From Candidatus Bathyarchaeota archaeon (GTDB taxonomy: Archaea; Thermoproteota; Bathyarchaeia; Bathyarchaeales; Bathycorpusculaceae), in the NCBI GenBank assembly GCA_026014615.1, contig JAOZHZ010000027.1:18920-82919 (forward strand): DNA of 64,000 bases. Reading direction: 5' to 3'. Position numbers and translations under genes: made by a program. Shown piece by piece: positions 5,144 to 52,976 of this stretch (its first letter is position 1; each line of letters starts with the position of its first letter). The notes beneath the pieces were generated by a model. It was given only the letters and a program-made list of their open reading frames with translations. It did not search any database and was not told the DNA's origin.

Positions 5144-5767
5144 TTACTTCTTTTTTTGTTTCTGCATTATTTGTTTGGCAATCTCTAAATCCTTGACTGT
5201 GTTGATGTTGAGCATGACTTCTTTGTCTTGGGTTATGATGGCGCTTGTTTCGATTTTGCCTTCTTCCTGCACCCGCAACCCATTAACGATGTTCACGCCC
5301 GAAACCGCGTACCACACCCCCTTATACTCGTCCGTGGAGGAAATCGACAACCCCAACTCCCGCCGCTTCTCGATGGGCACAAACACCGCCAAATAGTCCC
5401 TCCCGCACCTTTCGTAAGCCGTCACAATCTTGTCTAAAGCTTCCCCAGTCAAAGCGGGAACATCTGCAGGAATCGTCAAAATCGGACAACGCAACTCACC
5501 CCTAACCACGACTTGTTTAAGGTCCTCATGATACCCTTTAGCGTCCGTCGGGAGAACCCGCCACCCCTTCTTCTGGCAGTAAAGCTGCGTTTTAGGCGTA
5601 TTTGGGCTAGTAACCACATAAAACCGCGAGACCTTCTTCGCCGAAGTCAACGCATTCACCACCCAATCAATCAACGGCTTACCCAGAAACGGCACCAACG
5701 GCTTCTCTATAGCTAACCCCATGCGGGTGCCTTTGCCGCCCGCCATAATCAACGCAGGAATCCTCAC
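5144..5767 (-). CDS. cobY: Adenosylcobinamide-phosphate guanylyltransferase (archaeal CobY type)
   Basis: NTP-transferase N-terminus ALIMAGGKGTRMG..EKPL. The GTG start overlaps the cobS TGA stop (GTGA). The gene is adjacent to cobS. Confidence 0.8.
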   Translation of the reverse strand: MRIPALIMAGGKGTRMGLAIEKPLVPFLGKPLIDWVVNALTSAKKVSRFYVVTSPNTPKTQLYCQKKGWRVLPTDAKGYHEDLKQVVVRGELRCPILTIPADVPALTGEALDKIVTAYERCGRDYLAVFVPIEKRRELGLSISSTDEYKGVWYAVSGVNIVNGLRVQEEGKIETSAIITQDKEVMLNINTVKDLEIAKQIMQKQKKK

Positions 5768-6612
5768 AGCAACAGCCCTCCCCAAAACAGACCCGAAACA
5801 AAAACAAACACCGCAGCCACCAAAACCAAAACCACTGCTCTGGCGGTCTCATTGGTTGCACCAATAATGTCGCCACTGACGCCGCCAAACATAAAGTTCG
5901 CGACCTTCTCCATAAAAAGACCGCACCCAACCGAAGCCAAAACCGCCAGCAACCCCACAAACCCCAGCAAAACATAGCCAATCAGGAAAGCCGCGGTGTA
6001 TCCTGCGATGTTGATTTTTCGTTTGGCGTTGCGCATAAATCTTGCACCTAAGCCCTCGTGGGAGGGTTTGCCGCGCCAAACAATGGTTAACATCGCAAGT
6101 TTCGCGCCGATCTCGGCCACAATCAAAGCCCGAAGCGCAAGGTTCCAGTTCAAAAGGAATAGCCCTGCAAACGCGCAGAACTCCACAAAAAACGCCAACA
6201 AAGCTCCCTTGTAGGTGACTATCCATCTGTGGGCGATTTCCCGTCGGTCCTCCATTTTTTTCAGTCCGATTGCGTTGCCCAAGTCAATTAAGCCGTCAAA
6301 ATGCTGAAACCCCGTAAGCACCAGCAGAAACGCCAGCGTCATGGCAGCAGGCAAAACCCCCGCCAACCAACCCACAGGAACCTGAAGCAAGAAATCAACT
6401 GCTCCCACCAGAAACGAAACAATTACGCTGCAACCCCAAAAATAGCTTGCAGCAAACAACCCTAAAAGTCCCCCGACCAACGGAAAGAGGAACATATTAC
6501 GTGCACTTGAAGCAATGAAATCTTCCGTTTTCCCCAAAGGGATAATCGTAAGGAACGCTAGCAAATCCCTAAAAGTATTTATAGCATTCAACTTCGACAT
6601 ATACCCATTCAC
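5764..6612 (-). CDS. cobS: Adenosylcobinamide-GDP ribazoletransferase (cobalamin synthase)
   Basis: Polytopic membrane protein with CobS motifs LAFLTIIPLG, HFDGLIDLGNA and GGVSGDIIGATNE. Confidence 0.9.
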   Translation of the reverse strand: MNGYMSKLNAINTFRDLLAFLTIIPLGKTEDFIASSARNMFLFPLVGGLLGLFAASYFWGCSVIVSFLVGAVDFLLQVPVGWLAGVLPAAMTLAFLLVLTGFQHFDGLIDLGNAIGLKKMEDRREIAHRWIVTYKGALLAFFVEFCAFAGLFLLNWNLALRALIVAEIGAKLAMLTIVWRGKPSHEGLGARFMRNAKRKINIAGYTAAFLIGYVLLGFVGLLAVLASVGCGLFMEKVANFMFGGVSGDIIGATNETARAVVLVLVAAVFVFVSGLFWGGLLL

Positions 6613-15277: not shown

Positions 15278-15757
15278 CTATTTGTGGTTGCTGCGGGTTG
15301 CTTTGGTATACATGTTAGAAGATACGCCGGCAATTAACCCGCCGATTGCGTCGTTTGTCATCGGACCTAATTTCTTTAGGATGCCGGGTTTGGCTTGGTC
15401 AAACCGTGTGAATTCGAATAGTCCCCTTGCGCCTGCTATGTAACCTGCTACTGCCATGCCAATTAATTCGTCTGCGACAAGACCCGGGCGCCCCAAAAAT
15501 ACTTCTTTTGTCAACCCGGGGATTCGTCCAGCTTCTGCCTCCTGTTGCGTCAGATAAGCGGCGGCAATCAACGTGGCAATGTTAGGATCCTGTAGGGCTT
15601 CGAGGATTTCTTCGGTCAGCGTTTGGGTGGCTTTCTCTTTTGTTTCCACACCTGGATGAGGTACATAGAACTCTAATGCGGTGTCCAAAAGGTCTTGAAG
15701 TGTTACGCCTTTTTCTTCAAGAAACTTTAGCAGTGGCGGCACATTTACAGGTTTCAT
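15278..15757 (-). CDS. cobZ: PgpA-like phosphatase, probable alpha-ribazole-phosphate phosphatase (CobZ-like)
   Basis: PgpA-type motifs ADELIGMAVAGY and NDAIGGLIAGV. The gene is divergent from the btuF operon in a cobamide context. The start was chosen at the internal ATG; the longer TTG ORF extends to 15817. Confidence 0.55.
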   Translation of the reverse strand: MKPVNVPPLLKFLEEKGVTLQDLLDTALEFYVPHPGVETKEKATQTLTEEILEALQDPNIATLIAAAYLTQQEAEAGRIPGLTKEVFLGRPGLVADELIGMAVAGYIAGARGLFEFTRFDQAKPGILKKLGPMTNDAIGGLIAGVSSNMYTKATRSNHK

Positions 15758-15932
15758 AGCTATCAACCCAACAAATACCGTAAGCCTTTTCTTAAGTATT
15801 ACGTGCGCTGCTGGCAAATTTGTTTTGTGTTTCCTGTAGAGCTGCCGGTGTCCCTTTGCTTTTGTTTTTGGGAACGTTTATATCCGCTGTCATGGTTGGC
15901 TAATCCATCTACGTCTAAAAGAGTGTAAAACG

Positions 15933-16916
15933 ATGGTTAATGCACGTATAGTCGCAATCATAGGGATTGTAATAATCGCTGTAGCCTCAATCGGCGCTTT
16001 CATGTACTATCAGGGGATAAGCGGTGATTCGGCTTCGCCTAGTCCATCTTCTCCGATATCTGTAGTTGATGACGAAGGCAATACCTTAACGATGACCGAG
16101 TATCCAGAGCGAATAGTTTCTTTAGCTCCGGCTAACACGCAGATGATTTTCGCCGTGGGCGCAGGTGATAACGTTGTGGGCGTGACCGACTTCTGTACCT
16201 ACCCCTACAACTTTTCCGCCTGGATTGAAGCAGGGAACATGACCAGCATCGGAAACTATTACCAACCCGCAGTTGAGCCAATAGTTTCCTTAAACCCTGA
16301 CCTGGTGGTGGCAAGCTTGGGAAGCGTCGACACTGCAGAACAACTTCGAACATTAGGCTACAATGTTTTAACTTTAAACCCCGACAACCTTGATGGCGTC
16401 ATGGCGGACATGCTCAAAATAGGTCAAGCAACAGGACACGAAGCTGAAGCTCAAAGTGAAGTGGCCGACATGCAGCGCAGAATCGATGTCGTAGTAGAGG
16501 GTGTAGCACAAACAACTACTCGACCTACCGTCTACCACGAAATCTGGAGTGACCCCTACATGAGCGTCGGAGGAGACTCGTTCGTGACTGACATAATAAA
16601 CATGGCTGGCGGACAAAACATCTTCGAAAACGCGACTGAAGCATACCCTGTTGTGAGTTCAGAGTCAATAATATCTGAAAACCCTGAAATCATGGTTTTC
16701 CCGACCCATATGGGTGTAGAAAGCTTCTGGGGAAACTATGAAACCGTGGCTGATAGACCTGGATGGAATTCCATAAGCGCTGTGGTCAACAATAAGTTGT
16801 ACACTGTTGACGGAGACGTAATCGACGAACCTGGACCCCGACAAGTAGACTCACTTGAGATACTGGCGAAGATAATTCACCCTGAAATATTTGGATCCTA
16901 CAACGACACATCATAA
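15933..16916 (+). CDS. btuF: ABC transporter periplasmic-type binding protein, BtuF/FecB family
   Basis: Signal anchor followed by RIVSLAPANTQMIFAVGAGDNVVGVTDFCTYP. It is the first gene of the operon containing the permease and ATPase. Confidence 0.8.
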   Translation: MVNARIVAIIGIVIIAVASIGAFMYYQGISGDSASPSPSSPISVVDDEGNTLTMTEYPERIVSLAPANTQMIFAVGAGDNVVGVTDFCTYPYNFSAWIEAGNMTSIGNYYQPAVEPIVSLNPDLVVASLGSVDTAEQLRTLGYNVLTLNPDNLDGVMADMLKIGQATGHEAEAQSEVADMQRRIDVVVEGVAQTTTRPTVYHEIWSDPYMSVGGDSFVTDIINMAGGQNIFENATEAYPVVSSESIISENPEIMVFPTHMGVESFWGNYETVADRPGWNSISAVVNNKLYTVDGDVIDEPGPRQVDSLEILAKIIHPEIFGSYNDTS

Positions 16917-16959: not shown

Positions 16960-18045
16960 TTGAGAACACAAAAGAAGCAAAGCGGCGGTCCAATTCGCAC
17001 TTCACGGTGGAAAACCTACTTCCTATTATTGATTGTGGTTTTTCTGGTAACCATTTTTGTAGCGCTTAACATGGGTTTTAGCCAGATACCGCCTCTAGAC
17101 ACGTTGCAGATACTTCTAAAGAATACGCCCATAATAGGTAACTCTGTGGACCTTACGCCGTTTCAAGTCGCCAAAGAACCCATAATAATGCTTGTTAGGC
17201 TACCACGAATTTTATGCGGGGCGCTGGTCGGAGCGGCGTTGGCTACGTCTGGCATGATTTTTCAAGGTTTATTCCGAAACCCAATGGCTGATCCTTACAC
17301 TACAAGTGCCTCTTCAGGTGCTTCCTTGGGTGCAGCGTTGGCTATAGTTTTCGGAATCTCCGCTTTTGGGCTAGGAACTGTCTCTATTCTTGCTTTCGTA
17401 GGATGCATGGTTTCAGTACTTTTTGTCTACTCCATTTCAAGAGTTGGGTCTAGAGTTCCGATAACCACTTTACTTTTATCAGGTATAGCAGTAAGCATTT
17501 TTGAGTTAGCTATAGTCACTTACCTACAGACCATTGCAGGCGACAGGCTTGGACCTTTAACTTTCTGGTTAATCGGCAGCTTAAGCTCCACCCGAACAAC
17601 ATGGGCTGGCGTTATGACCATACTGCCCTTTGTTTTGTTTGGCATATCCGTAGCTTTCCTTTAGTCCCGAGACCTAAACCTTCTCACGTTAGGCGAAGAC
17701 CAAGCTCAACACTTAGGCCTAAACTTAGAACGCACAAAACTTGTCCTCATGGTTATCGGTGCCCTGTTAGCTGGAGCCGCGGTTTCCATAAGTGGCTTAA
17801 TCGGCTTCATAGGTTTGATGGTTCCTCACCTTGCACGATTGCTGGTGGGTCCTGACCATAGGGTTTTGCTTCCAGCATCGGTGTTTCTGGGTGCGACGTT
17901 TCTTGTCCTCTGTGACGGTGTAACCCGATTCTTGACGTCTCCCACTTCTCCCAGCGAAGTGCCTGTTGGAGTAATAACCGCCGTGACTGGAGTGGTGTTC
18001 TTCTTGTTCCTGTTGCGTAGAAAGAAACGGGTTGATGCGCTTTGA
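16960..18045 (+). pseudogene. btuC: BtuC/FecCD-family permease interrupted by one in-frame TAG (17662-17664)
   Basis: 16960..17664 and 17749..18045 share a frame. Read-through gives continuous FecCD sequence ...VAFL*SRDLNLLTLGEDQAQHLGLNLERTKLVLMVIGALLAGAAVSISG... Confidence 0.7.
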
Positions 18046-19414
18046 GGTGGAAAACATGGTGAACTTAAAGATTGAAGATGTCGATTGCAACTATGACTCA
18101 GTTCAAATTCTAGAAAACGTTCGTTTTTCGATTGAAACTGGAACTTTTCTCGGTATTTTGGGTCCTAACGGTTCAGGAAAAACAACAATGCTCAAGAGCA
18201 TAAGTCGAGTGCTAAAGCCACGTAACGGCGCAATCCTCATTGACGAAGCTAACGTTTACAAGATGAAAACTGGTGAAGTTGCCAAGCATATGGCTGTGGT
18301 GCCTCAGGACAGCTCCATTGCTTTCAGCTTCACAGCATTGCAGGTTGTGCTTATGGGTCGTGCGCCTCACCTTTCTAGGCTGCAGTCGGAAAGCGAAAAA
18401 GACATGGCTATCGCCAAGCAAGCTATGGAGTATACTGACACGTGGAATCTGGCTGATCGTTTGGTAACCGAATTAAGCGGCGGCGAAAGGCAGCGCGTAA
18501 TTATCGCACGTGCTTTGACTCAGGAGCCTAAAATCTTGCTGCTTGATGAACCCACAAGCCACCTAGACATCTGTAACCAACTGGAAATCATGGATTTGCT
18601 CAAGCAGCTTTGTGACGAGAATAAGATTCTAATTGTGGGCGTTTTCCACGATTTTAATTTGGCCGCACGATACTGTGACTCCCTAATTTTGCTTAAGGAC
18701 GGAAAAATTGTGGCTGCTGGAAAAGCCTCAGAAACCTTAACGAGCGAAAACATCAAGAACGTTTTTGGAATTGACGTTATCGTAAACAAGCATCCCGTAA
18801 CCGATTTGCCCTTTGTTATCCCCATTTCCAAGCCTAAGGACAAAAAGCAAAGAGGGTTGTCTGTTCATCTTATATGTGGAGCTGGAACAGGAAGTATGCT
18901 TATGAAGACCTTGACTGACTCTGGCTACAACGTCACCGCAGGGGTTTTGAACCTGTTGGACACTGACTGCGAATCAGCTCAATACCTTAAGGTTCGTGTG
19001 GCAACTGAAGCCCCGTTTTCTCCGCTAACTGAAAAAGCCCGAAAGGCTAATCTTGAAATGATTTGTCAATCGAACGTGATTGTGGTGACTTCAGTTCCGT
19101 TTGGACAGGGAAACCTGCAAAATTTGGAAGCCGCAAAGGAAGCCCTGAAACGGGGAATCCCAACTTACATACTTGACGAAGTGCCCATTGAAATTCGGGA
19201 CTTCACAGGAGGCAAAGCAAAAACGCTGCTTTCTGAGCTTGAAAAGCTGGGCGCAGTTTTTGTGCGCAGCCAAGCTGAGCTTTTGCATTTGCTTAACGTT
19301 TCTGAAGAAAAAGCCAAATTGGGCTCGGAATCTGCTTTGGTTGCGGACCACCTGAAATCCAATGCGACATCCAAGGAAAACGATATAACAAGCCAAGCGA
19401 AAAAACATAGTTGA
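18032..19414 (+). CDS. btuD: ABC transporter ATPase (BtuD/FepC type) fused to an uncharacterised ~190-aa C-terminal domain
   Basis: GPNGSGKTT, LSGGERQRV and LLLDEPTSHLD are present. After about aa 265 comes an extra domain starting RGLSVHLICGAGTGS. An alternative ATG start lies at 18056. Confidence 0.85.
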   Translation: MMRFEVENMVNLKIEDVDCNYDSVQILENVRFSIETGTFLGILGPNGSGKTTMLKSISRVLKPRNGAILIDEANVYKMKTGEVAKHMAVVPQDSSIAFSFTALQVVLMGRAPHLSRLQSESEKDMAIAKQAMEYTDTWNLADRLVTELSGGERQRVIIARALTQEPKILLLDEPTSHLDICNQLEIMDLLKQLCDENKILIVGVFHDFNLAARYCDSLILLKDGKIVAAGKASETLTSENIKNVFGIDVIVNKHPVTDLPFVIPISKPKDKKQRGLSVHLICGAGTGSMLMKTLTDSGYNVTAGVLNLLDTDCESAQYLKVRVATEAPFSPLTEKARKANLEMICQSNVIVVTSVPFGQGNLQNLEAAKEALKRGIPTYILDEVPIEIRDFTGGKAKTLLSELEKLGAVFVRSQAELLHLLNVSEEKAKLGSESALVADHLKSNATSKENDITSQAKKHS

Positions 19415-19431
19415 ATGAGGAGGACAAGATT

Positions 19432-20103
19432 GTGAAAGTCGTTGCCGCGTGGAGTGGTGGAAAAGACGGTTGTTCTGCATACTATAAAGCCTTGAAAGAG
19501 GGGTTTGAAGTCGTTAGCCTTCTGACCTCTATGCAGAGCGAAGCAAAAACTAATTTTCATGGCATACGCTCTGACCTTTTGGACGCTCAGGTTCAGGCTA
19601 TTGAGGTGCCAGTGTTTAAGCAGGTCACAACCCCCGAAACGTATGAGCAGCTGTTTAAGGAAGCCCTGTTGCACTTTAAAGCTCAGGGCGTTGAGGGCTT
19701 AGTTACTGGCGACATCTACGAGGTTGGAGGTCACGAGGAACGTTGGCTAGAACGCGTCTGTAGAGAAGTAGGTTTAAAACCGATTAGACCACTGTGGCAA
19801 GCAAACACAACCGAACTCTTCAAGGAATTCGTTGCTGCAGGCTTCAAAGCAATAGTTGTCCGAACAAACCTGTCCATCTTGGGCGAAGAATGGCTCGGAA
19901 AACAGTTAGACGCAGACTTCCTTTCAGAGATTCAGAAGATGCCTAACGTGGACCCCTGCGGCGAAGGCGGAGAATACCACACCATAGTCACAGACGGACC
20001 AATATTCAAAAACCGCATACAACTGACAGAGACGAAGCCCCTTTCCATCAACGGCTTTGGTAGCTTAGAGATTCTTAACTTCACGGTAACACCGAAAAAA
20101 TAA
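19432..20103 (+). CDS. MJ0570/Dph6-like N-type ATP pyrophosphatase (PP-loop family)
   Basis: VVAAWSGGKDGCSAYYKAL, EGGEYHT. A GTG start follows a GAGGAGG RBS. The TTG at 19411 overlaps the btuD stop and is an alternative start. Confidence 0.75.
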   Translation: MKVVAAWSGGKDGCSAYYKALKEGFEVVSLLTSMQSEAKTNFHGIRSDLLDAQVQAIEVPVFKQVTTPETYEQLFKEALLHFKAQGVEGLVTGDIYEVGGHEERWLERVCREVGLKPIRPLWQANTTELFKEFVAAGFKAIVVRTNLSILGEEWLGKQLDADFLSEIQKMPNVDPCGEGGEYHTIVTDGPIFKNRIQLTETKPLSINGFGSLEILNFTVTPKK

Positions 20104-20121: not shown

Positions 20122-20895
20122 ATGTGGAAAGAACTCAAAAACCTCTTTGCTTTTCTCACTGTCTTGCCACTCCAGATGGACATGGATTGCCTGACGGATT
20201 CAGCTAAGCTTATGTGGTGCTTTCCACTTGTGGGCGCCGTTATCGGTTTGCTGGCTGGCTTGTTTGGTTGGGCAGTCAGCTTTTTTCTTCCCGCTTTAGT
20301 GACTGGCGCCCTAGCTTTAGGCGTCCTTTTGCTACTTACGGGTTTGCACCATGCGGATGGACTGCTAGATTTCGGTGACGCTGCAATGTATCATGGCACG
20401 ACGGAACGCAAAATCGAAATCATGCACGACCAACTCACAGGCGCAGGCGCAATCGGGCTTGGAGTGATGACTTACTTGGTTACGGCTTTGACGTTTGGTT
20501 CACTAAACCAAACCGTAGCCATCGGTGGTTTTGAGGTTCCTGTGCTTCTCCCCGCGTTAATCGTGGTTGAAACGTCGGCTAAGCTTTCAATGGTGGTTGG
20601 CACTTGGGCTGGCAAAGCAATCCACAAAGGCATGAACTCCCCCTTCATGGACGCCATGCACGGCAGAAACGGCAATCTCCGCTTGGCTGCTGCTTTTGTT
20701 GTATCTTTGGCGGTTGCGGTTCCGCTTTTGTGGCTTGCAGGTTTGGTGACGGTTTTGACAGCGGTCATCTCTGGGCTCATAATGGTGGTTATTGCGCATC
20801 GGCATTTTGGCGGTGTCACAGGCGATGTGTTGGGTGCTACGAACGAGCTTACCCGTATGGTGTGTGTGATTGTGTTGTTGGCGATGTTACCATGA
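20122..20895 (+). CDS. cobS: Cobalamin synthase, second copy
   Basis: LFAFLTVLPL, HHADGLLDFGDA and GGVTGDVLGATNE. Confidence 0.9.
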   Translation: MWKELKNLFAFLTVLPLQMDMDCLTDSAKLMWCFPLVGAVIGLLAGLFGWAVSFFLPALVTGALALGVLLLLTGLHHADGLLDFGDAAMYHGTTERKIEIMHDQLTGAGAIGLGVMTYLVTALTFGSLNQTVAIGGFEVPVLLPALIVVETSAKLSMVVGTWAGKAIHKGMNSPFMDAMHGRNGNLRLAAAFVVSLAVAVPLLWLAGLVTVLTAVISGLIMVVIAHRHFGGVTGDVLGATNELTRMVCVIVLLAMLP

Positions 20896-21518
20896 CGACA
20901 ACTGCACTTGTTATGGCAGGAGGTAAAGGCACAAGGATGGCGTTGGCAGAGGAAAAACCAATGCTGCAAGTCGGTGGAAAACCCGTGGTTTCGCTGGTTC
21001 TTGAAGCGTTGAAAAACGCAAAGAAGGTGGATTCCGTGGTTGTTGCCGTAAGCAGCTACACCCCAAAAACTGCGGCGTATCTTGATGGTTTTCCCGTTAA
21101 GGTCTTGAAAACTCCCGGCAAAGAATACGTTTCTGACATGGGCTACGCCGTTAAAGCACTTAACATGCAGACGGTTTTGGCGATTGCCGCTGACATGCCT
21201 TTAATCACAGGCGAAATCATCGACGCCGTCTTAGATGAATATGCATCGTGTGGGAAGCCCGCGCTGGTTGTGGCTGTACCTTTGAAGACTAAACGTAAAC
21301 TTGGCATGAGCTTAGGCTACGCTTTTGACTTCGACAATGAACAAGTCGTTCCTGCAGGAATCAACATAAACGACGGCAGAAGAATAGACGAAGAAGAACT
21401 GGAGCAAGACGTTTATGTGCTCGATAAGGTGGAGGTCGCCGTGAACATCAACACGGTGGATGAGCTGAAGAGAGCAAAGGAACTTTTCAGCCAACTGCGA
21501 AAACCTTCTGAGCTTTGA
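20892..21518 (+). CDS. cobY: CobY-type adenosylcobinamide-phosphate guanylyltransferase, second copy
   Basis: MTTTALVMAGGKGTRMALAEEKPM. ATGA start/stop overlap with cobS. The longer 20604 start overlaps cobS in another frame and was rejected. Confidence 0.8.
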   Translation: MTTTALVMAGGKGTRMALAEEKPMLQVGGKPVVSLVLEALKNAKKVDSVVVAVSSYTPKTAAYLDGFPVKVLKTPGKEYVSDMGYAVKALNMQTVLAIAADMPLITGEIIDAVLDEYASCGKPALVVAVPLKTKRKLGMSLGYAFDFDNEQVVPAGININDGRRIDEEELEQDVYVLDKVEVAVNINTVDELKRAKELFSQLRKPSEL

Positions 21519-23799: not shown

Positions 23800-24558
23800 T
23801 TATTTGTTCAGAGATTTGCGGTATTCCTCAAGCTTTTTCATGTCAAAATCCTTTGTTAACACGGAATCCTCCAGCGCGTCCGAAACTTCCTGCTCTATTC
23901 CCCACGGGGTAATGAAGGCACTTCGTCCTCCTCGGGCGTTGCTGCTGACGTTGCCGATTTTTATGAGGTAGATGCCGTTTTCCATGGCAAGCTTGAACGT
24001 TAACGGATGTCCCTTAACAGGCGGGTGGGTTCCCATTGCAGCAACGGGTAGGAAAACCAGTTCCGCGCCCAAGTCTGCCACAGCTTTGATTGTTGGTGGA
24101 TCAAACATGTCTGCGCAGACTAGCATGCCGACTTTGCAGTGTTCCGTGTCAAATACAGCGGGGTCATCGCCTCGGCTTACGCCTGCATCCAGTTCGGCTT
24201 TGATGGGGTTTCGTTTGTGATATTTTCCGATCAGGTCACCATTTCTCCAGAGCGTGCTGGTGTTGTAGTATTTGCCATCTTCTTCTTCCAATACAGTGCC
24301 GCCCATTAGGTACAGTTCAGGGAACTCTTTGCTTATCTGTTTAAGGAAATTGAAGGTGGCGGTGTAGGTTTCTTTGCTTATGCGGGCGGCGTCTTTAAAG
24401 TGCTCCATGTTGTTGGGTACTGAGAAGTATTCTGGGAGTGCAATGAACGCAGGGGTTTGCTGTGCGGCTTGGGTTATGCCTGTTTTTGCTGCGTTGAGGT
24501 TTTCTTGGAGGTCGCTGCGGACTTTCATGTGGATGAGGCTTACTTTCACACTTTCCAC
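23800..24558 (-). CDS. Carbon-nitrogen hydrolase (nitrilase superfamily) protein
   Basis: ALPEYF, HKRNP and the GMLVCADMFDP catalytic Cys context are typical of CN hydrolases. Confidence 0.8.
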   Translation of the reverse strand: MESVKVSLIHMKVRSDLQENLNAAKTGITQAAQQTPAFIALPEYFSVPNNMEHFKDAARISKETYTATFNFLKQISKEFPELYLMGGTVLEEEDGKYYNTSTLWRNGDLIGKYHKRNPIKAELDAGVSRGDDPAVFDTEHCKVGMLVCADMFDPPTIKAVADLGAELVFLPVAAMGTHPPVKGHPLTFKLAMENGIYLIKIGNVSSNARGGRSAFITPWGIEQEVSDALEDSVLTKDFDMKKLEEYRKSLNK

Positions 24559-24850
24559 CTAACTGTTGAACTAATTGAAGAGTTATTGTATCTTAAATTG
24601 TTTCGCGGTCTTCTGTTATAGAGTGTCTTGTTAGGTTTGCGGTTTTTGTTGCTTGGTTTTGGTGGGTTTGTTTTGGCTGGTTTTTTACAGTTGTCAACGT
24701 CTCTTTCGTTTTGCAGGTTATCTGTCTGTTGGTTGTTCATTATTTTCTTTGTTTTCGCCACATATGTTTATTCTGCAAAGGTTTTTGTATGCATATGGAT
24801 AACCTTAAATAGCTCCGAAGAGACAAAACAGGTATTTACGGGGAATCGAA

Positions 24851-25837
24851 ATGGTACTTGACCAAAAAGAATACATCAACATTATTCCCGAAGTTAAACC
24901 CTTAGTCAACAAGGTTGTCCAAAATAACCTCGCCGATTGCATGCTCTTCTCAGCAGGAACCGACACCTCCATAATCGCCTACGAAGCCGTCAAATACAAA
25001 CCCGACATCCCATGCCTAACAATGGCTTTTAAGCATGGAAACCCAAAAGACGCCCAGTACGTCAAAGAAATGGTTGACTTTCTGAAGCTCAAGCAGAAAA
25101 CACACACTTTTGGCCGCGAAGAAGTTCTTCAGTTCTTCCCCAAAGTGGTGGAAGCCCTCAAAAAATTTGACCCCATGGAAATCCGAAACAGTCTTCCAGT
25201 TTACATCGGTCTAACATTACTCAAACCCAAAGGTTACACGAGCGTGTTCACTGGCGACGCTTTAGACGAGCTTTTTGGTTACCCTTGGCAATTCAACTTG
25301 ACCCAAGAGGAATTCTCCAAGAAGCAGGAAGAAATGTGGGCGGAAATGGGTTTCTCCAGTATACCCATGGCAGAGTCTCTGGGCATGACCATCAAGGCGC
25401 CTTATCTTGACCCTGCATTCATGGAATGGGCAAAGAAGCTACCAATCAAAGTCAAAATCAACTTGGGCGAAGACGGTCAAAGATACAGCAAGTGGCTTCT
25501 ACGCAAAGCCTACGAAGACGTGCTGCCACGCAGTGTAGTGTGGCGTCCTAAAGCACCGCTGGAAGAAGGCACAGGAACAGCAATTCTAAGGACACACTTC
25601 AACGACATGATTACAGATGAAGAGTTCGCGGAAAAGAAGAAGGCAATTATGGAAGCTGACGAAGTCGACATCCTAGACAAAGAACAACTGCTTTACTACG
25701 AACACTTCCGCAAAGTTTTCGGCAAACCCAAAGACGTTTACCCCAAGACTGAAGGCGCAATTCAGTGTCCAAAATGCAAGAGCTACATCAAAACTAAGAT
25801 TCACTTCTGCAAAATCTGCGGAGCCTACCCCATCTAA
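24851..25837 (+). CDS. Asparagine-synthase-domain (adenylating) protein without a glutaminase domain, with a C-terminal zinc ribbon
   Basis: SAGTDTS is a degenerate SGGxDS PP-loop. FTGDALDELFGYPW matches the AsnB GEGADELFGGY region. The C-terminus carries CPKC...CKIC. Confidence 0.7.
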   Translation: MVLDQKEYINIIPEVKPLVNKVVQNNLADCMLFSAGTDTSIIAYEAVKYKPDIPCLTMAFKHGNPKDAQYVKEMVDFLKLKQKTHTFGREEVLQFFPKVVEALKKFDPMEIRNSLPVYIGLTLLKPKGYTSVFTGDALDELFGYPWQFNLTQEEFSKKQEEMWAEMGFSSIPMAESLGMTIKAPYLDPAFMEWAKKLPIKVKINLGEDGQRYSKWLLRKAYEDVLPRSVVWRPKAPLEEGTGTAILRTHFNDMITDEEFAEKKKAIMEADEVDILDKEQLLYYEHFRKVFGKPKDVYPKTEGAIQCPKCKSYIKTKIHFCKICGAYPI

Positions 25838-32773: not shown

Positions 32774-33937
32774 CTATTTGAGGGCTTTTGCAAGTTCTTG
32801 GGCTTTGTCGGTTCGCTCCCAGGGGAGGTCGATGTCTTCTCTGCCGAAGTGCCCAAACACTGCAGTTTGCCTGTAAATTGGTCGCAGCAACTGCAGGTGT
32901 TCGATGATGGCTTTGGGTCGCATGTCAAAGTTTTTGTGGACCAACGCTAGGATTTCTTCGTCGCTGCATTTGCCTGTGCCAAACGTGTTTACGAGGACGC
33001 TGATGGGTTGGGCGACGCCGATGGCGTAGCTGATTTGGATTTCGCATTGTTCTGCTAGTCCTGCGGCGATGATGTTTTTGGCGATGTAGCGTGCCATGTA
33101 GCATCCGCTGCGGTCTACTTTGCTGGGGTCTTTGCCGCTGAAGCATCCGCCACCGTGGCTGCCGACGCCTCCGTAGGTGTCGACGATGATTTTTCTGCCT
33201 GTGAGTCCTGAGTCGGCGAGGGTTCCGCCGATGACGAAGCGTCCGGTGCCGTTGATGATGTATTTGGTGTCTGGTCGGAGCAGGTTTTTGGGGATGATGT
33301 GTTTGATGACTTTTTCGATGATTTCTTTTTTGAGTTCTGTGTCGTTTAACCCGCCGTTGTTCTGCGCGGCGATGACGACTGCGGTTACGCATTGGGGTTT
33401 GCCGTCGAGGTATTCGACGGTGACTTGGCTTTTGCAGTCGGGGCGTAGGCAGGGGATGATTTTTTTGTGTCTGCATTCCGCCAGTCGCTTCACCAGTTTG
33501 TGTGAGAGCATGATGGGTAGGGGCATGAGTTCTTTGGTTTCGTTGGTGGCGTATCCGAAGACCATGCCTTGGTCTCCTGCGCCTTGTTCGTGTCCTTCCG
33601 ACTCGGTGACTCCCATCGAAATGTCCGGGCTCTGCTCGGTGAGGGAGACAAGTATGCCGCAGGTTTCCCAGTCTAAGCCGTCTTTGGCGTTGTCTAAGCC
33701 GATTTCTTTGAGGGCGACTCGGACGATTTTTGGGATGTTTACGTAGGTTTTGGTGGTGATTTGTCCGGTGACGACGACGGTTCCCTGCATGACGAGGGTT
33801 TCGGCGTCTACGCGGGCTTTGGGGTCTTTACATAAGATTGCGTCTAAGATGCTGTCGGAGACTTGGTCAGAAACCTTGTCTGGGTGACCTTCCCCGACTG
33901 ATTCAGACGTAAACAAGTATTTGCCGTCTTTTTTCAT
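32774..33937 (-). CDS. metK: S-adenosylmethionine synthetase, bacterial/eukaryal MetK type
   Basis: [43 protein letters not shown]. 387 aa. Confidence 0.95.
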
Positions 33938-35620: not shown

Positions 35621-36271
35621 ATGGCGATAGCAACTTTAGATTTCAAGAAATACATCACAAACTTAGTGAGCGAGAAAGCTCCTGGACCCTCAACAACTTT
35701 TAGCATGTTCCACATTTTCTATGCCTTGGAGCTTATGGAACAAAAACCAATTGGGCGCAATCGTCTAGCCCAGAAGCTAAACGTCGGCGAAGGCGCCATT
35801 CGCACAATTATAAACCGCCTCAAAGACGAACAGCTCATAACCACCGCCAAGGAAGGCTGCAGCCTTACCCCCAAAGGCTTGGAGGTCTGGCATAAATTCG
35901 AGGCTGTTTTCCCGCAGCGCGCAGAAATCGAGCAGACAGAGCTGACGCGTTCACTGTTTAATTATGCGTTTTTGGTGAAGAACAGTGGACAAAAGATAGG
36001 GTCAGGTATCGAACAGCGGGATGCTGCCATTATGGGTGGAGCCCAACGTGCCATAGCTCTGGTTTTCCGAGGGGGACATCTTGTTATCGGTTCAGTAAGC
36101 GGTAGCATCGAAAAAGAGTTTCCGGACGCCGCAAACAAAATCCTCAAAAACCTCAAACCCGAAGAAAACGACGTCATAATAATCGCAGGTGCCGACAACG
36201 CGGTGAGAGCGAAGCGAGGCGCGTTTGCTGCAGCGTGGGTCCTAATAGGCGAAACAGAAACAACTAATTAG
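35621..36271 (+). CDS. Archaeal winged-helix protein (DUF4443-like)
   Basis: The N-terminal wHTH reads IGRNRLAQKLNVGEGAIRTIINRLKDEQLI. A conserved C-terminal domain follows. Confidence 0.5.
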   Translation: MAIATLDFKKYITNLVSEKAPGPSTTFSMFHIFYALELMEQKPIGRNRLAQKLNVGEGAIRTIINRLKDEQLITTAKEGCSLTPKGLEVWHKFEAVFPQRAEIEQTELTRSLFNYAFLVKNSGQKIGSGIEQRDAAIMGGAQRAIALVFRGGHLVIGSVSGSIEKEFPDAANKILKNLKPEENDVIIIAGADNAVRAKRGAFAAAWVLIGETETTN

Positions 36272-39767: not shown

Positions 39768-40847
39768 TTATTGCTTCTTGAGGTAGTTGGGGTCCTCGCG
39801 GAGAACCTTTGGTATGTAGTTGCAGGCGGGGTCTGATTCGAACAGGTCGCCTGTGTAGTATTCAGCGCGTGTTCGGCAGCCACCGCAAATTTCGCGGTAC
39901 TCACAAACACCACACTTACCCTTAATGTTGCTCTTATCCCGAAGCTTTAGGTGAAGTTCGCTTTGCTGCAGTTCATCCCACACTTGGGTCAGTTTCTTGT
40001 CCTTGACGTTGCCCAGACGGTAACCTTCGTGGAAGCCACAGCTGCGGTAGTCACCGTTTTCGGTTATACTAACGTAGTTGCCGCCGATGGTGCATCTGCC
40101 CAAGTAACCGTTCTGGTACCACTCCCAGAAGTCCACAGGGTTCTTCTGGCGCACGATTCGCGCGTAAAAGGGTGAGTAAACGTTGATTTTGGTCCTGCCC
40201 ATAAGTTTGCGTTGCAAGTCATAGATTTCATCAAAAGCCTTCTCGTACTGTTCGGGGGTTGGAGCCAAATCAGGCATGTTGCTACCTGCTCTACCCACAG
40301 GCACAAGGTTATGGTACACAACCATGCGGGCTCTGTATTCTTCTCCTAATGCTGCAGGGTGAGCCATGTCGTTAATGTTGTACTTAGTCATAGTTGTGAC
40401 GATGCAGTCCAGAAGGTCATTTTCAGAAAGTTTCTTCATGGCATGAAGCGCTTTATCGTAGCCACCTTTGCGTCGGATAATATCGTTTGACTCGCGGTTT
40501 CCGTCCACACTGACTGCAGTGTGTACCTCGTATTTGGCGAGTTTGTCGAGGCGTTCTTGGTCAAACACGAAGCCGCTGGTGATGAGGCTGACTTCCATGC
40601 CGTACTCCTTTTCGGCGTAGGCAATGATGTCAAAAATGTCGTCACGAATCATAGGTTCTCCGCCGCTGATTCCAAACCATGGAGAACCAAATTCGTGAAT
40701 CTCGTCAACCATGTGATAAGCTTCTTTCGTGCTTAATTCTTGGTCTTTGGCGTATTCTTTAGTGTAGCTGCAGTACATGCAGCTGCCGACACAGTTCCTT
40801 GTACATCGCCATGTTACCATGAACAATGGCGCTTTAGAGTTAGCCAT
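39768..40847 (-). CDS. Radical SAM/SPASM-domain enzyme (AhbC/AhbD/NirJ-like), paralog 1
   Basis: CVGSCMYC is the CxxxCxxC motif. GISGGEP is present. The C-terminal auxiliary-cluster region is GKCGVCEYREICGGCRTRAEYYTGDLFESDPAC. Confidence 0.8.
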   Translation of the reverse strand: MANSKAPLFMVTWRCTRNCVGSCMYCSYTKEYAKDQELSTKEAYHMVDEIHEFGSPWFGISGGEPMIRDDIFDIIAYAEKEYGMEVSLITSGFVFDQERLDKLAKYEVHTAVSVDGNRESNDIIRRKGGYDKALHAMKKLSENDLLDCIVTTMTKYNINDMAHPAALGEEYRARMVVYHNLVPVGRAGSNMPDLAPTPEQYEKAFDEIYDLQRKLMGRTKINVYSPFYARIVRQKNPVDFWEWYQNGYLGRCTIGGNYVSITENGDYRSCGFHEGYRLGNVKDKKLTQVWDELQQSELHLKLRDKSNIKGKCGVCEYREICGGCRTRAEYYTGDLFESDPACNYIPKVLREDPNYLKKQ

Positions 40848-41183
40848 CAAACTCACAACTTCAAATAGATGAAATCTTTGCGATATAAGATTTCCTATTA
40901 AAACGGGCATGTTAAGGCGCGCCGTTTTTAACCTGTTTAATGTTATCTGCAGAAATAAGCGGTTTTTACCCTAAAACCGTTTGTATTTTAAAGTTTTCTC
41001 GGAAACCTGCAAAGTGCGCTTATTTCTTTGTCTAAAAAAGCTTTTGGCATGTTTCTGTTCACAACGACACTTTTGCTTGCTCATATTTGCATTATTGTTG
41101 CCGTTAAGAATCATCTTACTAGAAAATCTTATAAACCAAGTGCCATAGAGCTTTTTTAGATTTCCAACAAAGGAGATTAGGAA

Positions 41184-42560
41184 ATGTCTAAACCAAAAGA
41201 ATACTCGTCTATGACCAAAGATAAACTGATGACCTACACTTTCGTTGCACTCTTGATTCTCGCAATAGTTACATCCATCATGTGGTCAGGAATAGGCACA
41301 GAATCCTTGATAACAACTCCATCAGGCTGGAACCTAGGGCTTACAGTTGCCCTTAGCTGCATAATCGCCGTCGGAATTGCTGTCGGACTCGACTTGTTCC
41401 TCCACAAAATCGCCGTCGACAGCCAACTGAACACAATGTCCTCAGCAGTTTTCGGTTTAATCGTTGCACTCTCGTACACCCTTGGCATCCCCGCAATGAA
41501 TTCAGGCGAAATGTTACCTATAGAAGCCCCTGGAGCATTCATTTACATCGCGCTTATCTCTACAGTCGGTCTGGTTGTCTTCAAGAAAGTCCTTGGCGGA
41601 TCGGGCAAGAAACCTGTAAACCCCGCAGCAGCCGCAAAATTCCTCGTACTCCTACCAATGCTCAACTCTATGCTAATTGTTTCCGACCACCTCAAAACAG
41701 GTATGCTAGGTGTACCTTCACTGGCTGGTCCCATAGGGTATGACATTATAAACGGAAACGGGTTCGGTTCATTTGCAGGTTATATTCAAACATGCTATGC
41801 TAATCCAACTCTTGCTCTTCCAAGTGTCACCACAACTAACGACGTACTCAACCTCATGCTGCTGCAAAAGTTCCACGGGTGGATTGGTGGAGCCTCAAGC
41901 ATCGCTGTTATTGTTGTAGGTTTAGGACTCTTCATAGTCGCACGCCGATACATCAAATGGAGAATCACATTCTCATACCTTGTAGCCACTGCATTATTCG
42001 CGTTTCTCATGAGCTATGCTTACGGCGGAGACCCACTGCTACGCATAATTTTCCACCTGTTCATGGGCAGCTCAATATTCCTAGCGTTCTTCATGGCAAC
42101 TGATCCCGCAAGCACACCAATAACGTATGCTGGTCAAATATTGTTCGGTATAGGCTTAGCCGCTATCACCATAGTGCTGCAAACATATGCAAGCTTCTTC
42201 GGAGGATCAATACTTGCGTTAATAATCATGAACTTAGTGGCGTCAAAGCTGGACATTATCGGAAAACTTAAACCCACCACCGAAACAAAAGAACCTAAAC
42301 TTCCAAAAGCCAAAGCCTTCCCGCCAGAAGCAATCAAAGAATATCCCTGCATGAGATGCGGTGCTTGTATGCGTGTGTGCTGCCACAAACTGAGTCCAAT
42401 CCTGATTAAGCAAGCCTTCGACAAGCAAGACTTCGATGCTCTCATAAAACTCCACCCTGACTACTGTACTGGTTGTGGACACTGCACTTTCGTTTGCCCC
42501 GCAAGAATCGACCTGCGAAAGAGTGTACTTCAAGCAAAAGGCGCGCTACGCGGAGAGTAG
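41184..42560 (+). CDS. RnfD/NqrB-family membrane protein fused to a C-terminal 2x[4Fe-4S] ferredoxin domain
   Basis: The polytopic part has NPAAAAKFLVL and FFMATDPASTP (RnfD-like). The C-terminus has CMRCGACMRVC and CTGCGHCTFVCP. Confidence 0.7.
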   Translation: MSKPKEYSSMTKDKLMTYTFVALLILAIVTSIMWSGIGTESLITTPSGWNLGLTVALSCIIAVGIAVGLDLFLHKIAVDSQLNTMSSAVFGLIVALSYTLGIPAMNSGEMLPIEAPGAFIYIALISTVGLVVFKKVLGGSGKKPVNPAAAAKFLVLLPMLNSMLIVSDHLKTGMLGVPSLAGPIGYDIINGNGFGSFAGYIQTCYANPTLALPSVTTTNDVLNLMLLQKFHGWIGGASSIAVIVVGLGLFIVARRYIKWRITFSYLVATALFAFLMSYAYGGDPLLRIIFHLFMGSSIFLAFFMATDPASTPITYAGQILFGIGLAAITIVLQTYASFFGGSILALIIMNLVASKLDIIGKLKPTTETKEPKLPKAKAFPPEAIKEYPCMRCGACMRVCCHKLSPILIKQAFDKQDFDALIKLHPDYCTGCGHCTFVCPARIDLRKSVLQAKGALRGE

Positions 42561-43625: not shown

Positions 43626-44924
43626 TTAATCGGTATGTTTAGGCGCGAATTCCCATGCGATGTTGCCTTTCCAGACTTCACCCTGCTTTGTCAAGCGAAC
43701 TTCTTTGTCGTCGATTTCAATTAAGCCCTTTGCCTTGAGCCGTTCAAGTTGTCGAGGGAAAACGTCTTCAGGAATCTTGCCGAATTTCTCCATGAACTCC
43801 TGTTTGCTCACTGGCAAACGAATGTAAAGCCTGCTCATTTCGCGGCGCATCATGTCGTCGTCAGTGGATTTCGAGAGCCTTTGAATTGGCAGTTTGCCTG
43901 ACTGCACTATCGACATGTAGGTGTTTATGTCGTCGGCGTTGCTGTAGCTGAACCGTTGCAGGTAACCCATAAAACAGCCTGCACCAGTCGTTAAAATTCC
44001 GCCCCATGGCCAACCATTGAGGCAGTTTTCGCGCATGTGCCATTCAACGCGGCTGAAGCGGTCGTGACCCACCGCCTTGTAGCCTGCTCCCGTTAAAAGC
44101 TTGTAGGCAGCAAGGTACATTTCCTTCTCAAAATCGCCGTCGCCCTGTGGTGGAACTACACCATTCTGAATCATTTTCTCCAGCGCTGTTCCAGGATCAA
44201 CATGCAGAGAATAGCAGTCAATTTCTACGTCAAGCTCAATGGCTTTTTTAAGGGTTTCTATCCAGCTTTCCATGGTTTGAGTTGGGAAGTTATACATAAA
44301 ATCCACGCAGACACACAAGCCCAGTTTGCGTGCATGGCGGATGGCTTTTTCTACGTTCTCTGCTGAGTCCGGCAGACACATCAACTTACGGAGTCCATCA
44401 TCGAAAGTTTGGGCACCCATATCCACCTGATAGGTGCCATATTCAGCTAACTTGTCAATTTTTTTGAGGTCCAACGTCTTGGATGAGGCGGATACTTTTA
44501 TGAAATATTCTTCGTTTAAGTTGAAGTTTGCTTTGCAGAAGTCAATGAGGTCAATCATCTGCTCAGCACTGAGTACACTGGGTGTTCCGCCGCCTAACAC
44601 AATCTCGTCGAACACGCTGGTTTTGATGTATTTGGTTTTAGCGTACATCAACAGCTCTTTCTTTAGCATCTTCAAGTATTGTTCTATTTGCACTTTGGTT
44701 GTTGCAGTGGTGGGGACGTAGCAGAATGCGCATCGGCTGTCACATATGGATATCCACGGCTGTAATTCCATCAGTCTGCCTGATGTGTTTTCTGTGTTCA
44801 GGAACTCCATAAATTCCTGATAAGTTTCAGGTTTGATGTCTGGGTAGTCCCTGTAAGTGTGTGGCGGCCAATTTGCTCGCTCTTCATAAGCTTCTGACTT
44901 ATTTTGCGTTGTGGAGTTTTTCAT
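43626..44924 (-). CDS. HemN/HemW-like radical SAM protein (coproporphyrinogen-III-oxidase family)
   Basis: CDSRCAFCY motif, LGGGTPS, and a C-terminal HemN_C-like region. Confidence 0.8.
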   Translation of the reverse strand: MKNSTTQNKSEAYEERANWPPHTYRDYPDIKPETYQEFMEFLNTENTSGRLMELQPWISICDSRCAFCYVPTTATTKVQIEQYLKMLKKELLMYAKTKYIKTSVFDEIVLGGGTPSVLSAEQMIDLIDFCKANFNLNEEYFIKVSASSKTLDLKKIDKLAEYGTYQVDMGAQTFDDGLRKLMCLPDSAENVEKAIRHARKLGLCVCVDFMYNFPTQTMESWIETLKKAIELDVEIDCYSLHVDPGTALEKMIQNGVVPPQGDGDFEKEMYLAAYKLLTGAGYKAVGHDRFSRVEWHMRENCLNGWPWGGILTTGAGCFMGYLQRFSYSNADDINTYMSIVQSGKLPIQRLSKSTDDDMMRREMSRLYIRLPVSKQEFMEKFGKIPEDVFPRQLERLKAKGLIEIDDKEVRLTKQGEVWKGNIAWEFAPKHTD

Positions 44925-45103: not shown

Positions 45104-46183
45104 TTATTGTTGTTTTTCGCGTAGTGCTTTGGGTATGTATGGGCAGGCGGGGTCTGATTCGTACATGTCGCCCGTGTAGGCGTAGGCGCGGTTTCTGCAT
45201 CCGCCGCAGATGTCGCGGTATTCGCATACTCCACATTTGCCTTTGAGTAAGTTTCGGTCTTGGAAGCTGCTGTAGAAGGGTGAGGCTTTGACTTCTTTCC
45301 AAGCTTCTTGTAGGGTTTTGTTGCGGATGTTGCCGAGGCGTTGGTGATCTGTGGGGGTGAGGTCGGTGTAGAAGCAGGGGATGAGGTCGCCGTTTTCGGT
45401 GACGCTGACGTAACCGCCGAAAGCGAAGTAGGTGCATTTGCCGTGGAACTTGTGTTCGTACCATTCGTCAAAGTTGGGGATGTTGCGTTGCTTCACTACG
45501 CGGGCGAAGTGGGGGCAGTGAACGTGGATTTCGAATTTTTTCTCGTATTTGACGGTGAGGTCCCAGATGTGGTTTAGTGTCCACTCGTATTGTTCTGGTG
45601 AGGGTGCAAGCTCCATGGTTATTTTGGCTCTGCCGCTGGGCACCAGATGGTTGTACCAGACGAAGTTGGCGTGGTATTTGTCGGCGAGTTCGGCGACGTG
45701 GTCTAGGTGTTGGTAGTTTATGGTGGTTATGGCGCAGGCTAAGCCGTTGAGGATTTTGCCCTTTGACAGTTTTTCGATGGCTGCGAGGGCTTTTTTGTAG
45801 CTGCCTTTGCCGCGGAGTTGGTCGTTGATTTCTTCGGGTCCGTCGATGCTTACGCTGGTCCAGACTTGGTTTTTGACTAGGTTATCGTAGATTGAGCCGT
45901 CGACGAATACGCCGTTGGTGAGGAGGCAGACGTTGAGTCCTTTGCTTTTGGCGTAGGTTACGATTTCGAAGATGTCGGGTCGGGTGAGGGGTTCGCCGCC
46001 TTTGATGCCGAACCATCGGACGCCGAACTTGCTGACTTCGTCTACGAGGTGGAAGGCTTCTTTGGTGGTGAGTTCGTTGGGGGCTTTGGCGCCTGTGGCG
46101 TCTACGTTGCAGTATATGCATCGGGCGTTGCAAGCTCCTGTGGCTCGCCAAGAAGTCATAAGTAACGGACCTTCATGTTTCAT
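45104..46183 (-). CDS. Radical SAM/SPASM-domain enzyme, paralog 2
   Basis: CNARCIYC, GIKGGEP and GKCGVCEYRDICGGCRNRAYAYTGDMYESDPAC. It is roughly half identical by eye to 39768..40847. Confidence 0.8.
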   Translation of the reverse strand: MKHEGPLLMTSWRATGACNARCIYCNVDATGAKAPNELTTKEAFHLVDEVSKFGVRWFGIKGGEPLTRPDIFEIVTYAKSKGLNVCLLTNGVFVDGSIYDNLVKNQVWTSVSIDGPEEINDQLRGKGSYKKALAAIEKLSKGKILNGLACAITTINYQHLDHVAELADKYHANFVWYNHLVPSGRAKITMELAPSPEQYEWTLNHIWDLTVKYEKKFEIHVHCPHFARVVKQRNIPNFDEWYEHKFHGKCTYFAFGGYVSVTENGDLIPCFYTDLTPTDHQRLGNIRNKTLQEAWKEVKASPFYSSFQDRNLLKGKCGVCEYRDICGGCRNRAYAYTGDMYESDPACPYIPKALREKQQ

Positions 46184-46318
46184 AAACAAGAATTCCCCTT
46201 TGTTTGTGTCCTGAATTATGTACGATAGTTTTAGAGTTGCCAACCTAAAAAAGATTATGCGGTTCATTTCGTTTTCGAAGTTGGCTTGTTGTTTAGTGTT
46301 TTTTGGTTTTTGTCGGAG

Positions 46319-46345
46319 TGTGAATTTGTAAGCAGAAACAAATTG
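46319..46345. promoter_or_regulatory. Shared upstream sequence blocks (second copy; see 34068..34102)
   Basis: The contiguous TGTGAATTTGTAAGCAGAAACAAATTG lies upstream of radical SAM paralog 2 on the minus strand. Confidence 0.45.
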
Positions 46346-46372
46346 GTTCTTTTTTGTGACTTTTTGTGAGTT

Positions 46373-49974: not shown

Positions 49975-51536
49975 TGATGTCGCTTCCTTAAAGTAAACGC
50001 GGTTATGCCTGTTGTGGCTGCCAAAACCAAGATGGCTACTGAATTAAACTCAGGTACGGTGGGCGACGGCGATGCCAAAGTTATGTTGGGTGATGATGTA
50101 CTTGGCTGCTCGGTTGACTTTGGTGTTGATGTGGGCGTAGTTGAACTTGCTTCGCGGTATCCGATGGGTGTGTATTGGTCGTTTATGGAATAGTGGTTTT
50201 CTTCTTTGAAGATGCCTCCTATAGCGTACAACTGATCATTTAGGCATATGACGATTACGTCGCCAAAGTTTTCCATGCGGTTGGTTCTTTGTATAGGCGT
50301 AGCAAGTGTCCAGTTGTCGTTTGCTGGGTCGTAGACTTGGTTTAATCCTCCGCCGATAACGTAGATTCGCTTAGGCGCTAAAACTCCCGACGTAGTGGCT
50401 GCGCTTCGACCGCTTTCCGCATTTGGTATTGGTGTTCCTATCTTCCAAGTGTCCGTTTTGGGGTCGTAGATTTGGGTTAAGTTGACGCGGTTTAGGGTTG
50501 TGCTGTTGGCTTCTCGTGTGTAGCCGCCAATCACATAGATTTTGCCGTCAACTACCGCCGAAGCATAATAAGAAACAGGTGTCGGGATGGGCGTCTTTGT
50601 AGTCCAAGTATCCGTGATGGGGTCATAAACTTCGGTTACATTAATGATCTCGCGTGTTACTCTGTTGTCAATCCTTATCTCTTCGTTTGATGTGCCGCCT
50701 ATGAGGTAGATTTTGTCGTCTACAAGGTGTGCATTCATCCCTGACTTCTTAGTGGGCATTGGTGTTTTGCTTTGATTCCACGTATCCGCACTGGGATTGT
50801 AGGACCACACCGTGTCTGTGCCGCTTCCTGACAAAAACCAGCTTCCCCCAAAAACGTAGATTTCTCCTTCGTATGCAGCAACGCCAGAGCCTCCTCTTGT
50901 GCTGGGCATGGATTTTTTCGTAGTCCATTTGTCTGTTTCTGGGTTGTATTCTTGATTAACTTTGCATGGAACACCGCCGTCGCTAAACAGGCAACCGCCT
51001 AGAGCGTAAATTTTGTCATCAACAACCGCAAGACCCACCGCGTACCTTGTCGCCTGATACGCTGACTTTGCTGCCCATGAATCGGCATGCACCTCAGTGC
51101 TTTCGTATTCTACGATTAACGTGTAGGTTATCACGTTTGAGGCTGTTATATTCAGCTGGATGGTGACTTGACCTGTTTCGTTTCCCAAGTGTTCCAGCCC
51201 TATTATCCATGTTCTGTTACTTGCGCCTGTATTGTTTGAAATAGACCCTTTTCTTTCTGAACCGAAAGCTAACCACATTTCTGCTTGCCCGGAAGCAGTA
51301 TAGTTACCTCTAACACGCCAGTGAGCTTGATTGAGTACGAGTATGTCCACGGTTTGGCTTTGATTGCCCGTTATGGTCTGGACGTAAACCCACTGCGGCT
51401 CAGGCTGGTCCGGAGGTAGAGATGGCGGATAGCAGTAAGGATTGGCGTTAGTCACATTAGCAACCTGAATTACAGCCAAAACGGAAATTGCGAGAATAAG
51501 GCTGACCATTGCTGTTGAGGGTGTTTTTGTGTTCAT
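49971..51536 (-). CDS. Secreted Kelch-repeat beta-propeller protein, PEF-CTERM
   Basis: Six Kelch-type blades (DDKIYALGG, GEIYVFGG, DDKIYLIGG, DGKIYVIGG, KRIYVIGG, NDQLYAIGG). The tail is PSPTVPEFNSVAILVL...RKRHQ. Confidence 0.85.
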   Translation of the reverse strand: MNTKTPSTAMVSLILAISVLAVIQVANVTNANPYCYPPSLPPDQPEPQWVYVQTITGNQSQTVDILVLNQAHWRVRGNYTASGQAEMWLAFGSERKGSISNNTGASNRTWIIGLEHLGNETGQVTIQLNITASNVITYTLIVEYESTEVHADSWAAKSAYQATRYAVGLAVVDDKIYALGGCLFSDGGVPCKVNQEYNPETDKWTTKKSMPSTRGGSGVAAYEGEIYVFGGSWFLSGSGTDTVWSYNPSADTWNQSKTPMPTKKSGMNAHLVDDKIYLIGGTSNEEIRIDNRVTREIINVTEVYDPITDTWTTKTPIPTPVSYYASAVVDGKIYVIGGYTREANSTTLNRVNLTQIYDPKTDTWKIGTPIPNAESGRSAATTSGVLAPKRIYVIGGGLNQVYDPANDNWTLATPIQRTNRMENFGDVIVICLNDQLYAIGGIFKEENHYSINDQYTPIGYREASSTTPTSTPKSTEQPSTSSPNITLASPSPTVPEFNSVAILVLAATTGITAFTLRKRHQ

Positions 51537-52861: not shown

Positions 52862-52900
52862 TGCTCAACGCCTACAATTAAATAATACTTCGTGTTTGCG

Positions 52901-52943: not shown

Positions 52944-52976
52944 GAGAACTTTACGCTCTGACTTAACGGCGTTATG

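Follow-up and report, generated by a model that had tools for sequence, protein, structure and literature searches.

The permease gene of a predicted cobamide-uptake operon in a Bathyarchaeia genome is interrupted by an in-frame TAG, which is probably a genuine and very recent nonsense substitution, either fixed or polymorphic in the population sampled. The gene lies in a 64-kb stretch of DNA (referred to here as the window) with a G+C content of 46.6%; the best database matches for two of its proteins are in metagenome-assembled and complete Bathyarchaeia genomes, and its gene order is common to the complete genome CP166960.1 and an ENA contig. The sequence and its translation place the TAG at 17662-17664, in frame from a TTG at 16960 to a TGA at 18043-18045 on the forward strand, and the two open reading frames called there (16960..17664 and 17749..18045) do share one frame, as the initial annotation had it. 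The permease and the genes around it are arranged as follows (L numbers refer to orthologous loci in relatives):

15933-16916, forward strand: btuF-like substrate-binding protein (Peripla_BP_2), intact (PF01497, E 4.3e-39; 80% identity to the L001/L002 ortholog)
16960-17661, forward strand: N-terminal part of the permease, 234 codons up to the premature stop (87% identity to the L001-L003 orthologs over residues 1-234)
17662-17664, forward strand: in-frame TAG at permease codon 235 (ortholog alignment and codon comparisons)
17665-18045, forward strand: C-terminal part of the permease, 126 codons and the TGA, including the conserved SRDLNLLTLGEDQAQHLG and the last transmembrane helices
18056-19414, forward strand: btuD-like ABC ATPase fused to a C-terminal MJ0874-type domain, intact (Pfam ABC_tran, PF00005)
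19411-20103, forward strand: Diphthami_syn_2-family (ATP pyrophosphatase-like) gene, intact (PF01902, E 1.4e-51)
20122-20895, forward strand: cobS (cobalamin-5'-phosphate synthase), intact (PF02654, E 8e-41)
20892-21518, forward strand: cobY-like nucleotidyltransferase (NTP_transf_3), with an ATGA overlap with cobS (orthologs 205 aa)

When the TAG is read as X, the 361-aa permease product has a single Pfam match, to FecCD (PF01032), covering profile positions 2-311 of 311 with an E-value of 1.8e-85, and reading through the stop thus restores a full-length permease, as had been proposed. The product also matches in sequence the type II importer permeases FhuB, HmuU, HI1471 and BtuC, through the solved structures 7lb8, 4g1u, 2nq2, 5b57, 2qi9 and 1l7v (E 5e-56 to 9e-39), and its expected partners adjoin it, a cluster A (Peripla_BP_2) binding protein (PF01497) and an ABC ATPase (PF00005), in an order that is kept in the relatives. 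The permease is therefore a FecCD/BtuC type II ABC importer by descent, but one that is broken. In sequence it resembles FhuB and HmuU more closely than E. coli BtuC, and because of this cobamide as the substrate is a prediction drawn only from the cobS/cobY operon context.

An importer of this family should have an unbroken frame for all of the transmembrane helices and the ATPase-coupling segment, but here the TAG at codon 235 immediately precedes the conserved SRDLNLL.LGEDQA. The 84 nt at 17665-17748, which translate to SRDLNLLTLGEDQAQHLGLNLERTK, contain no in-frame ATG, GTG or TTG, and the next open reading frame starts at the ATG at 17749. The initial annotation claimed both that this gap lacks a start codon and that it encodes the most conserved part of FecCD, and the ortholog alignment agrees: the 28 codons between the TAG and the ATG are the best-conserved segment of the family, with eleven invariant residues (R237, L239, N240, L244, E246, Q248, A249, H251, L252, G253 and E257).

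The flanking btuF, btuD fusion, cobS and cobY genes had been described as intact and tightly spaced, and their Pfam matches agree with this; the operon has a further member that was not named there, the Diphthami_syn_2-family gene, which is also found between btuD and cobS in L001, L002 and L008. The btuD-like ATPase is 81% identical to its ortholog over residues 2-457, and its orthologs are 451-452 aa long and carry PF27219 (MJ0874 type). We note that neither the extra C-terminal domain of this ATPase (about 200 aa) nor the Diphthami_syn_2-family gene has an obvious role in cobamide salvage. At the left end of the operon, an N-terminal extension of btuF through the TAG at 15837 was considered and rejected, as it is not conserved and would run some 120 nt into the divergent gene at 15278-15817. 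A second, divergent cobY-like/cobS pair is present on the reverse strand about 10 kb upstream (5144-6612), with 38% and 34% identity to the copies at 20122-21518, and the relative L008 has it as well (144-1600); having the last steps of cobamide assembly in duplicate may allow for different lower ligands.

The initial annotation suggested alignment with orthologous BtuC proteins to see which residue occupies the TAG position, and among 23 orthologs with 55-88% identity it is tyrosine in 22 and phenylalanine in one. All four of the closest orthologous loci that were read (L001, L002, L003 and L008) use TAT here, and one third-position T>G transversion therefore suffices to generate the TAG. More distant members of the family differ at this position, with Gln in HmuU and Leu or Cys in FhuB. 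In a database of 5.8 billion proteins the close permease homologs are all full length (359-367 aa), and no fragment of around 234 aa is among them. A degenerate DNA pattern for FL-TAG-SRDLNLL[T/A]LGEDQA, which demands Phe-Leu ahead of the TAG and leaves out Tyr-Leu variants, has no match in 185,579 species-representative genomes and the JGI metagenome contigs, and an exact 28-mer with TAN at the permease site has none in either the genome or the metagenome contig collections. The permease TAG is private to this genome among the genomes and metagenome contigs searched. Elsewhere in the permease, none of the 95 columns that are invariant among the orthologs (53 upstream and 42 downstream of the TAG) carries a private change, from which it follows that the lesion is very young, is an artefact, or is read through.

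Two other genes in the window are interrupted, in different ways:

60622-61272, reverse strand: flavodoxin/iron-sulfur-flavoprotein (Isf)-like gene of the FMN_red family, interrupted by a TAG at 60988-60990
57788-58482, reverse strand: Asp/Glu-racemase/Amdase-family pseudogene with three 1-nt indels (tblastn and DNA alignment against the L007 ortholog)

The first of these contains the second in-frame TAG that had been reported at 60988, and it is there in the sequence on the minus strand. Orthologs of the flavodoxin-like gene are 191 aa long, belong to the FMN_red family and are intact in all of the relatives. The column of the TAG is variable among them (E, V, G, L, A, M or D), and the nearest ortholog, with 92% identity, has GAG, which is one base from TAG. 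Both interrupting stops are thus private and a single substitution away from the codons of close orthologs, and the relatives' genes are intact. Both also have a T on either side, as the initial annotation pointed out. However, the flanking codons (Leu-Tyr-Ser in the permease and Asn-Glu-Tyr in the flavodoxin-like gene) are unchanged in the orthologs, and the T-TAG-T context is no signal because its T's belong to these conserved codons; as a candidate recoding context it was rejected, since the true TAG stop at 36269 shares it. The flavodoxin-like gene adjoins and converges with an intact hybrid-cluster protein gene (Prismane; 58698-60353, forward strand) that is 87% identical to its ortholog, and L004, L005 and L007 all keep the pairing, suggesting that the two are functional redox partners and that this partnership has been disrupted in the window.

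The Amdase-family gene, which the initial annotation did not list, has an intact ortholog in CP166960.1 (L007 17728-18447) but is itself untranslatable because of its three separate indels, and every other gene in the window with an ortholog aligns end to end. Three indels in a single 0.7-kb gene out of 64 kb point to gene decay and not to scattered sequencing error, and this genome therefore does accumulate pseudogenes; as frameshifts are found nowhere else in the window, its base-level quality looks good.

TAG is a working terminator in the window. The initial annotation listed at least seven genes ending on it (stops at 1220, 15278, 30304, 32774, 35528, 36269 and 38493), all of which exist, and we count twelve. 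Those ends that can be checked coincide with the ends of orthologs or of Pfam models, which is in keeping with the earlier view that a genome-wide reassignment of TAG is unlikely. Thus the TAG of the gene at 15278-15817 lies within a few residues of its orthologs' stops; those of MetK (32774-33937), a DUF4443 gene (35621-36271) and an RnfD-Fer4 gene (41184-42560) lie just past the last position of the Pfam model; and that of a NosD/beta-helix surface protein follows a C-terminal membrane anchor. In 63 kb of relatives' sequence, TAG ends 15 of 59 called genes and none is found in frame within a conserved gene. A scan of the window for interrupting stops of any kind, with at least 70 open codons on each side, found no conserved gene interrupted by TAA or TGA, and the other same-frame pairs of open reading frames parted by TAG, TAA or TGA were set aside as adjacent independent genes, antisense frames or chance frames. 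One candidate for a third interruption, the TAG at 46373-46375 between two frames in register, is the true end of the NosD/beta-helix gene with its C-terminal anchor, and what follows is a radical SAM/SPASM gene in its own right. Of the possible single-substitution nonsense mutations in the window's genes, 34% give TAG, 43% TAA and 23% TGA, and two TAGs among two nonsense events have a probability of about 0.11, which is no evidence for a tolerance specific to TAG.

We also looked for components and signals of recoding. The 64-kb window has no tRNA and no Rfam match, and Pfam scans of about 50 of its proteins gave no pyrrolysine (Pyl)-related or methylamine methyltransferase family. Folding of the 120 nt downstream of each TAG is no more stable than that of shuffled sequence (z of +1.78 and +0.36), and a PYLIS-like stimulatory structure, which is helpful but not obligatory for Pyl recoding, is lacking after both. 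Pyl recoding also predicts that the TAG itself is conserved, and this fails at the permease site, where the orthologs have Tyr or Phe.

Several other features of the window deserve mention. The S-adenosylmethionine synthetase gene (32774-33937, reverse strand) has matches to the Pfam domains S-AdoMet_synt N, M and C, an architecture of the bacterial and eukaryotic type and not of the divergent archaeal one, and it may be a horizontal acquisition. The gene at 41184-42560 (forward strand) fuses an RnfD/NqrB-family membrane protein to a C-terminal 2x[4Fe-4S] ferredoxin domain, and there are no other rnf genes nearby. A run of predicted secreted or surface proteins on the reverse strand (45104-53894) includes the NosD/beta-helix protein with its C-terminal anchor, an arylsulfotransferase-like protein, a Kelch propeller and two proteins that lack any Pfam match. 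The radical SAM/SPASM gene (45104-46267) flanks the run and has a paralog at 39768-40910, and the run may represent a maturase-plus-surface-protein cluster. In CP166960.1 a HemN-like radical SAM gene lies between the CN_hydrolase and Asn_synthase genes (L001 16090-19337) and is absent at the corresponding place in the window (23800-25837); a paralog with 43% identity is found at 43626-44924.

The initial annotation offered a recent nonsense mutation, read-through or recoding, and a consensus error as possible explanations of the permease TAG, and with a Tyr TAT one base away, our tests favor the mundane ones. Most probably, a Tyr codon, TAT or TAC, became TAG when its T or C was replaced by G at 17664. 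Translation of the permease would then stop after residue 234, and the truncated product would lose the conserved segment SRDLNLL.LGEDQA.HLG (SRDLNLLTLGEDQAQHLG) together with the last transmembrane helices. In terms of the E. coli BtuCD structures, this segment would correspond to the cytoplasmic loop joining TM6 to TM7, which makes contact with the ATPase and couples it to the permease. Starting at the ATG at 17749 cannot restore it, and the predicted transporter would therefore be inactive or nearly so. The flavodoxin-like gene appears to have undergone the same kind of event, GAG to TAG, and the Amdase-family gene would be an older pseudogene; recoding would not be involved, with TAG acting as an ordinary terminator in this genome. 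There are, however, observations that sit less comfortably with a recent mutation. An otherwise flawless permease is just as compatible with a base-call error or functional read-through, both interrupting stops are TAG with none TAA or TGA (although p is about 0.11), and the operon is otherwise intact and tightly packed. A corrinoid-dependent anaerobe might moreover be expected to need such an importer.

An error in the consensus or assembly would mean that TAT or TAC is really present at 17662-17664 and GAG at 60988-60990, with a miscalled base or a minor allele reported in their place. The single-base nature of the change and the perfect conservation of the rest of the permease speak for this, but the number of errors that it requires is awkward. 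Of the single substitutions possible in the window's genes, only about 4% yield a stop codon (6689 of some 160,000 paths), and two nonsense errors therefore imply roughly 50 errors in 64 kb, a substitution error rate near 1e-3. So many errors fit poorly with the intact frames of the other genes, and there is no frameshift outside the one multi-lesion pseudogene, whose clustered indels represent decay. We thus regard an error as unlikely, although it is the more credible of the alternatives. A functional split permease, in which the 234-aa N-terminal part assembles with a 98-aa fragment re-initiated at the ATG at 17749, is barely credible: both fragments are open and conserved, but the 28-codon best-conserved segment with its eleven invariant residues would be lost, and the database contains no homolog with such a split.

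The remaining possibility, which is unsupported, is that UAG is decoded and some full-length permease is made, either through Pyl (a pylTSBCD lineage with ambiguous UAG) or through low-level near-cognate read-through; in the latter version a tRNA-Tyr misreading UAG would regenerate the wild-type permease. The two premature stops are both TAG, both interrupted genes are otherwise undecayed, and the residues of HmuU and FhuB indicate that the permease site may tolerate amino acids other than Tyr. PylRS is encoded in a few Bathyarchaeota (PMC9630628), high usage of TAG stops is compatible with Pyl machinery, notably when recently acquired (bioRxiv 10.1101/2024.09.30.615893), UAG has two meanings in Methanosarcina acetivorans, and drift can bring Pyl into ordinary proteins (PMC12626013). 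With PylRS in only a few Bathyarchaeota, however, the prior for Pyl decoding is low, and the window is not encouraging: its 64 kb contain neither a tRNA nor a Pyl gene or methylamine methyltransferase, neither the relatives' orthologs nor their 63 kb of sequence repeat an in-frame TAG, the twelve TAG-terminated genes end where they can be checked as expected, and neither the downstream RNA nor the two-of-two TAGs (p = 0.11) signals recoding. Functional decoding of the permease TAG therefore seems quite improbable, and there is only a slim chance of the more specific scenario in which a Pyl cassette or other amber suppressor decodes UAG ambiguously, with TAGs born by drift being tolerated and partly read through. 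If that scenario were true, the lineage would be early in the transition that has been described for archaea encoding Pyl, and amber codons would be spreading into the housekeeping genes of a TACK archaeon, although nothing that we found points there. With a recent nonsense mutation as the preferred explanation, the btuC-like and flavodoxin-like genes should be annotated as pseudogenes or as containing suspect bases, and a working cobamide importer should not be taken for granted when the metabolism of this Bathyarchaeia genome is reconstructed.

Comparison with known systems leads in the same direction. Archaeal genes in which UAG encodes Pyl (mtmB, mtbB and mttB, and the genes of 'Code 34' archaea) resemble the window permease in having an in-frame TAG in an otherwise intact gene, and some members of the window's phylum carry Pyl machinery. 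However, the window gene is not a methyltransferase, its TAG is present in no ortholog, and the ancestral residue is a conserved Tyr; the window also uses TAG as a terminator in twelve genes and shows no Pyl component. Under a genome-wide reassignment such as Code 34, genes would run through TAG to a TAA or TGA, whereas these twelve genes of the window terminate on it. The FecCD-family type II importers (E. coli BtuC, Yersinia HmuU, Haemophilus HI1471/MolB and E. coli FhuB) share with the window the full-length FecCD match and the operon with a Peripla_BP_2 binding protein and an ABC ATPase, and depart from it in that the window's permease frame is broken by the TAG at codon 235 and its ATPase has the extra MJ0874-type domain. 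The closest counterparts are two intact Bathyarchaeia permeases, P0001 in the complete genome CP166960.1 and P0002 in ERZ25039495 contig_11345, which are similar to the window copy (88% amino acid identity) and lie in loci where the genes from GT4 to cobY are ordered alike. Both are uninterrupted at 360 aa and have TAT (Tyr) where the window has TAG, and as the DNA identity is only about 73-77%, their hosts are different species from that of the window. Most likely, then, the window permease gene is a young nonsense pseudogene of an ordinary kind, in an archaeal genome derived from a metagenome.
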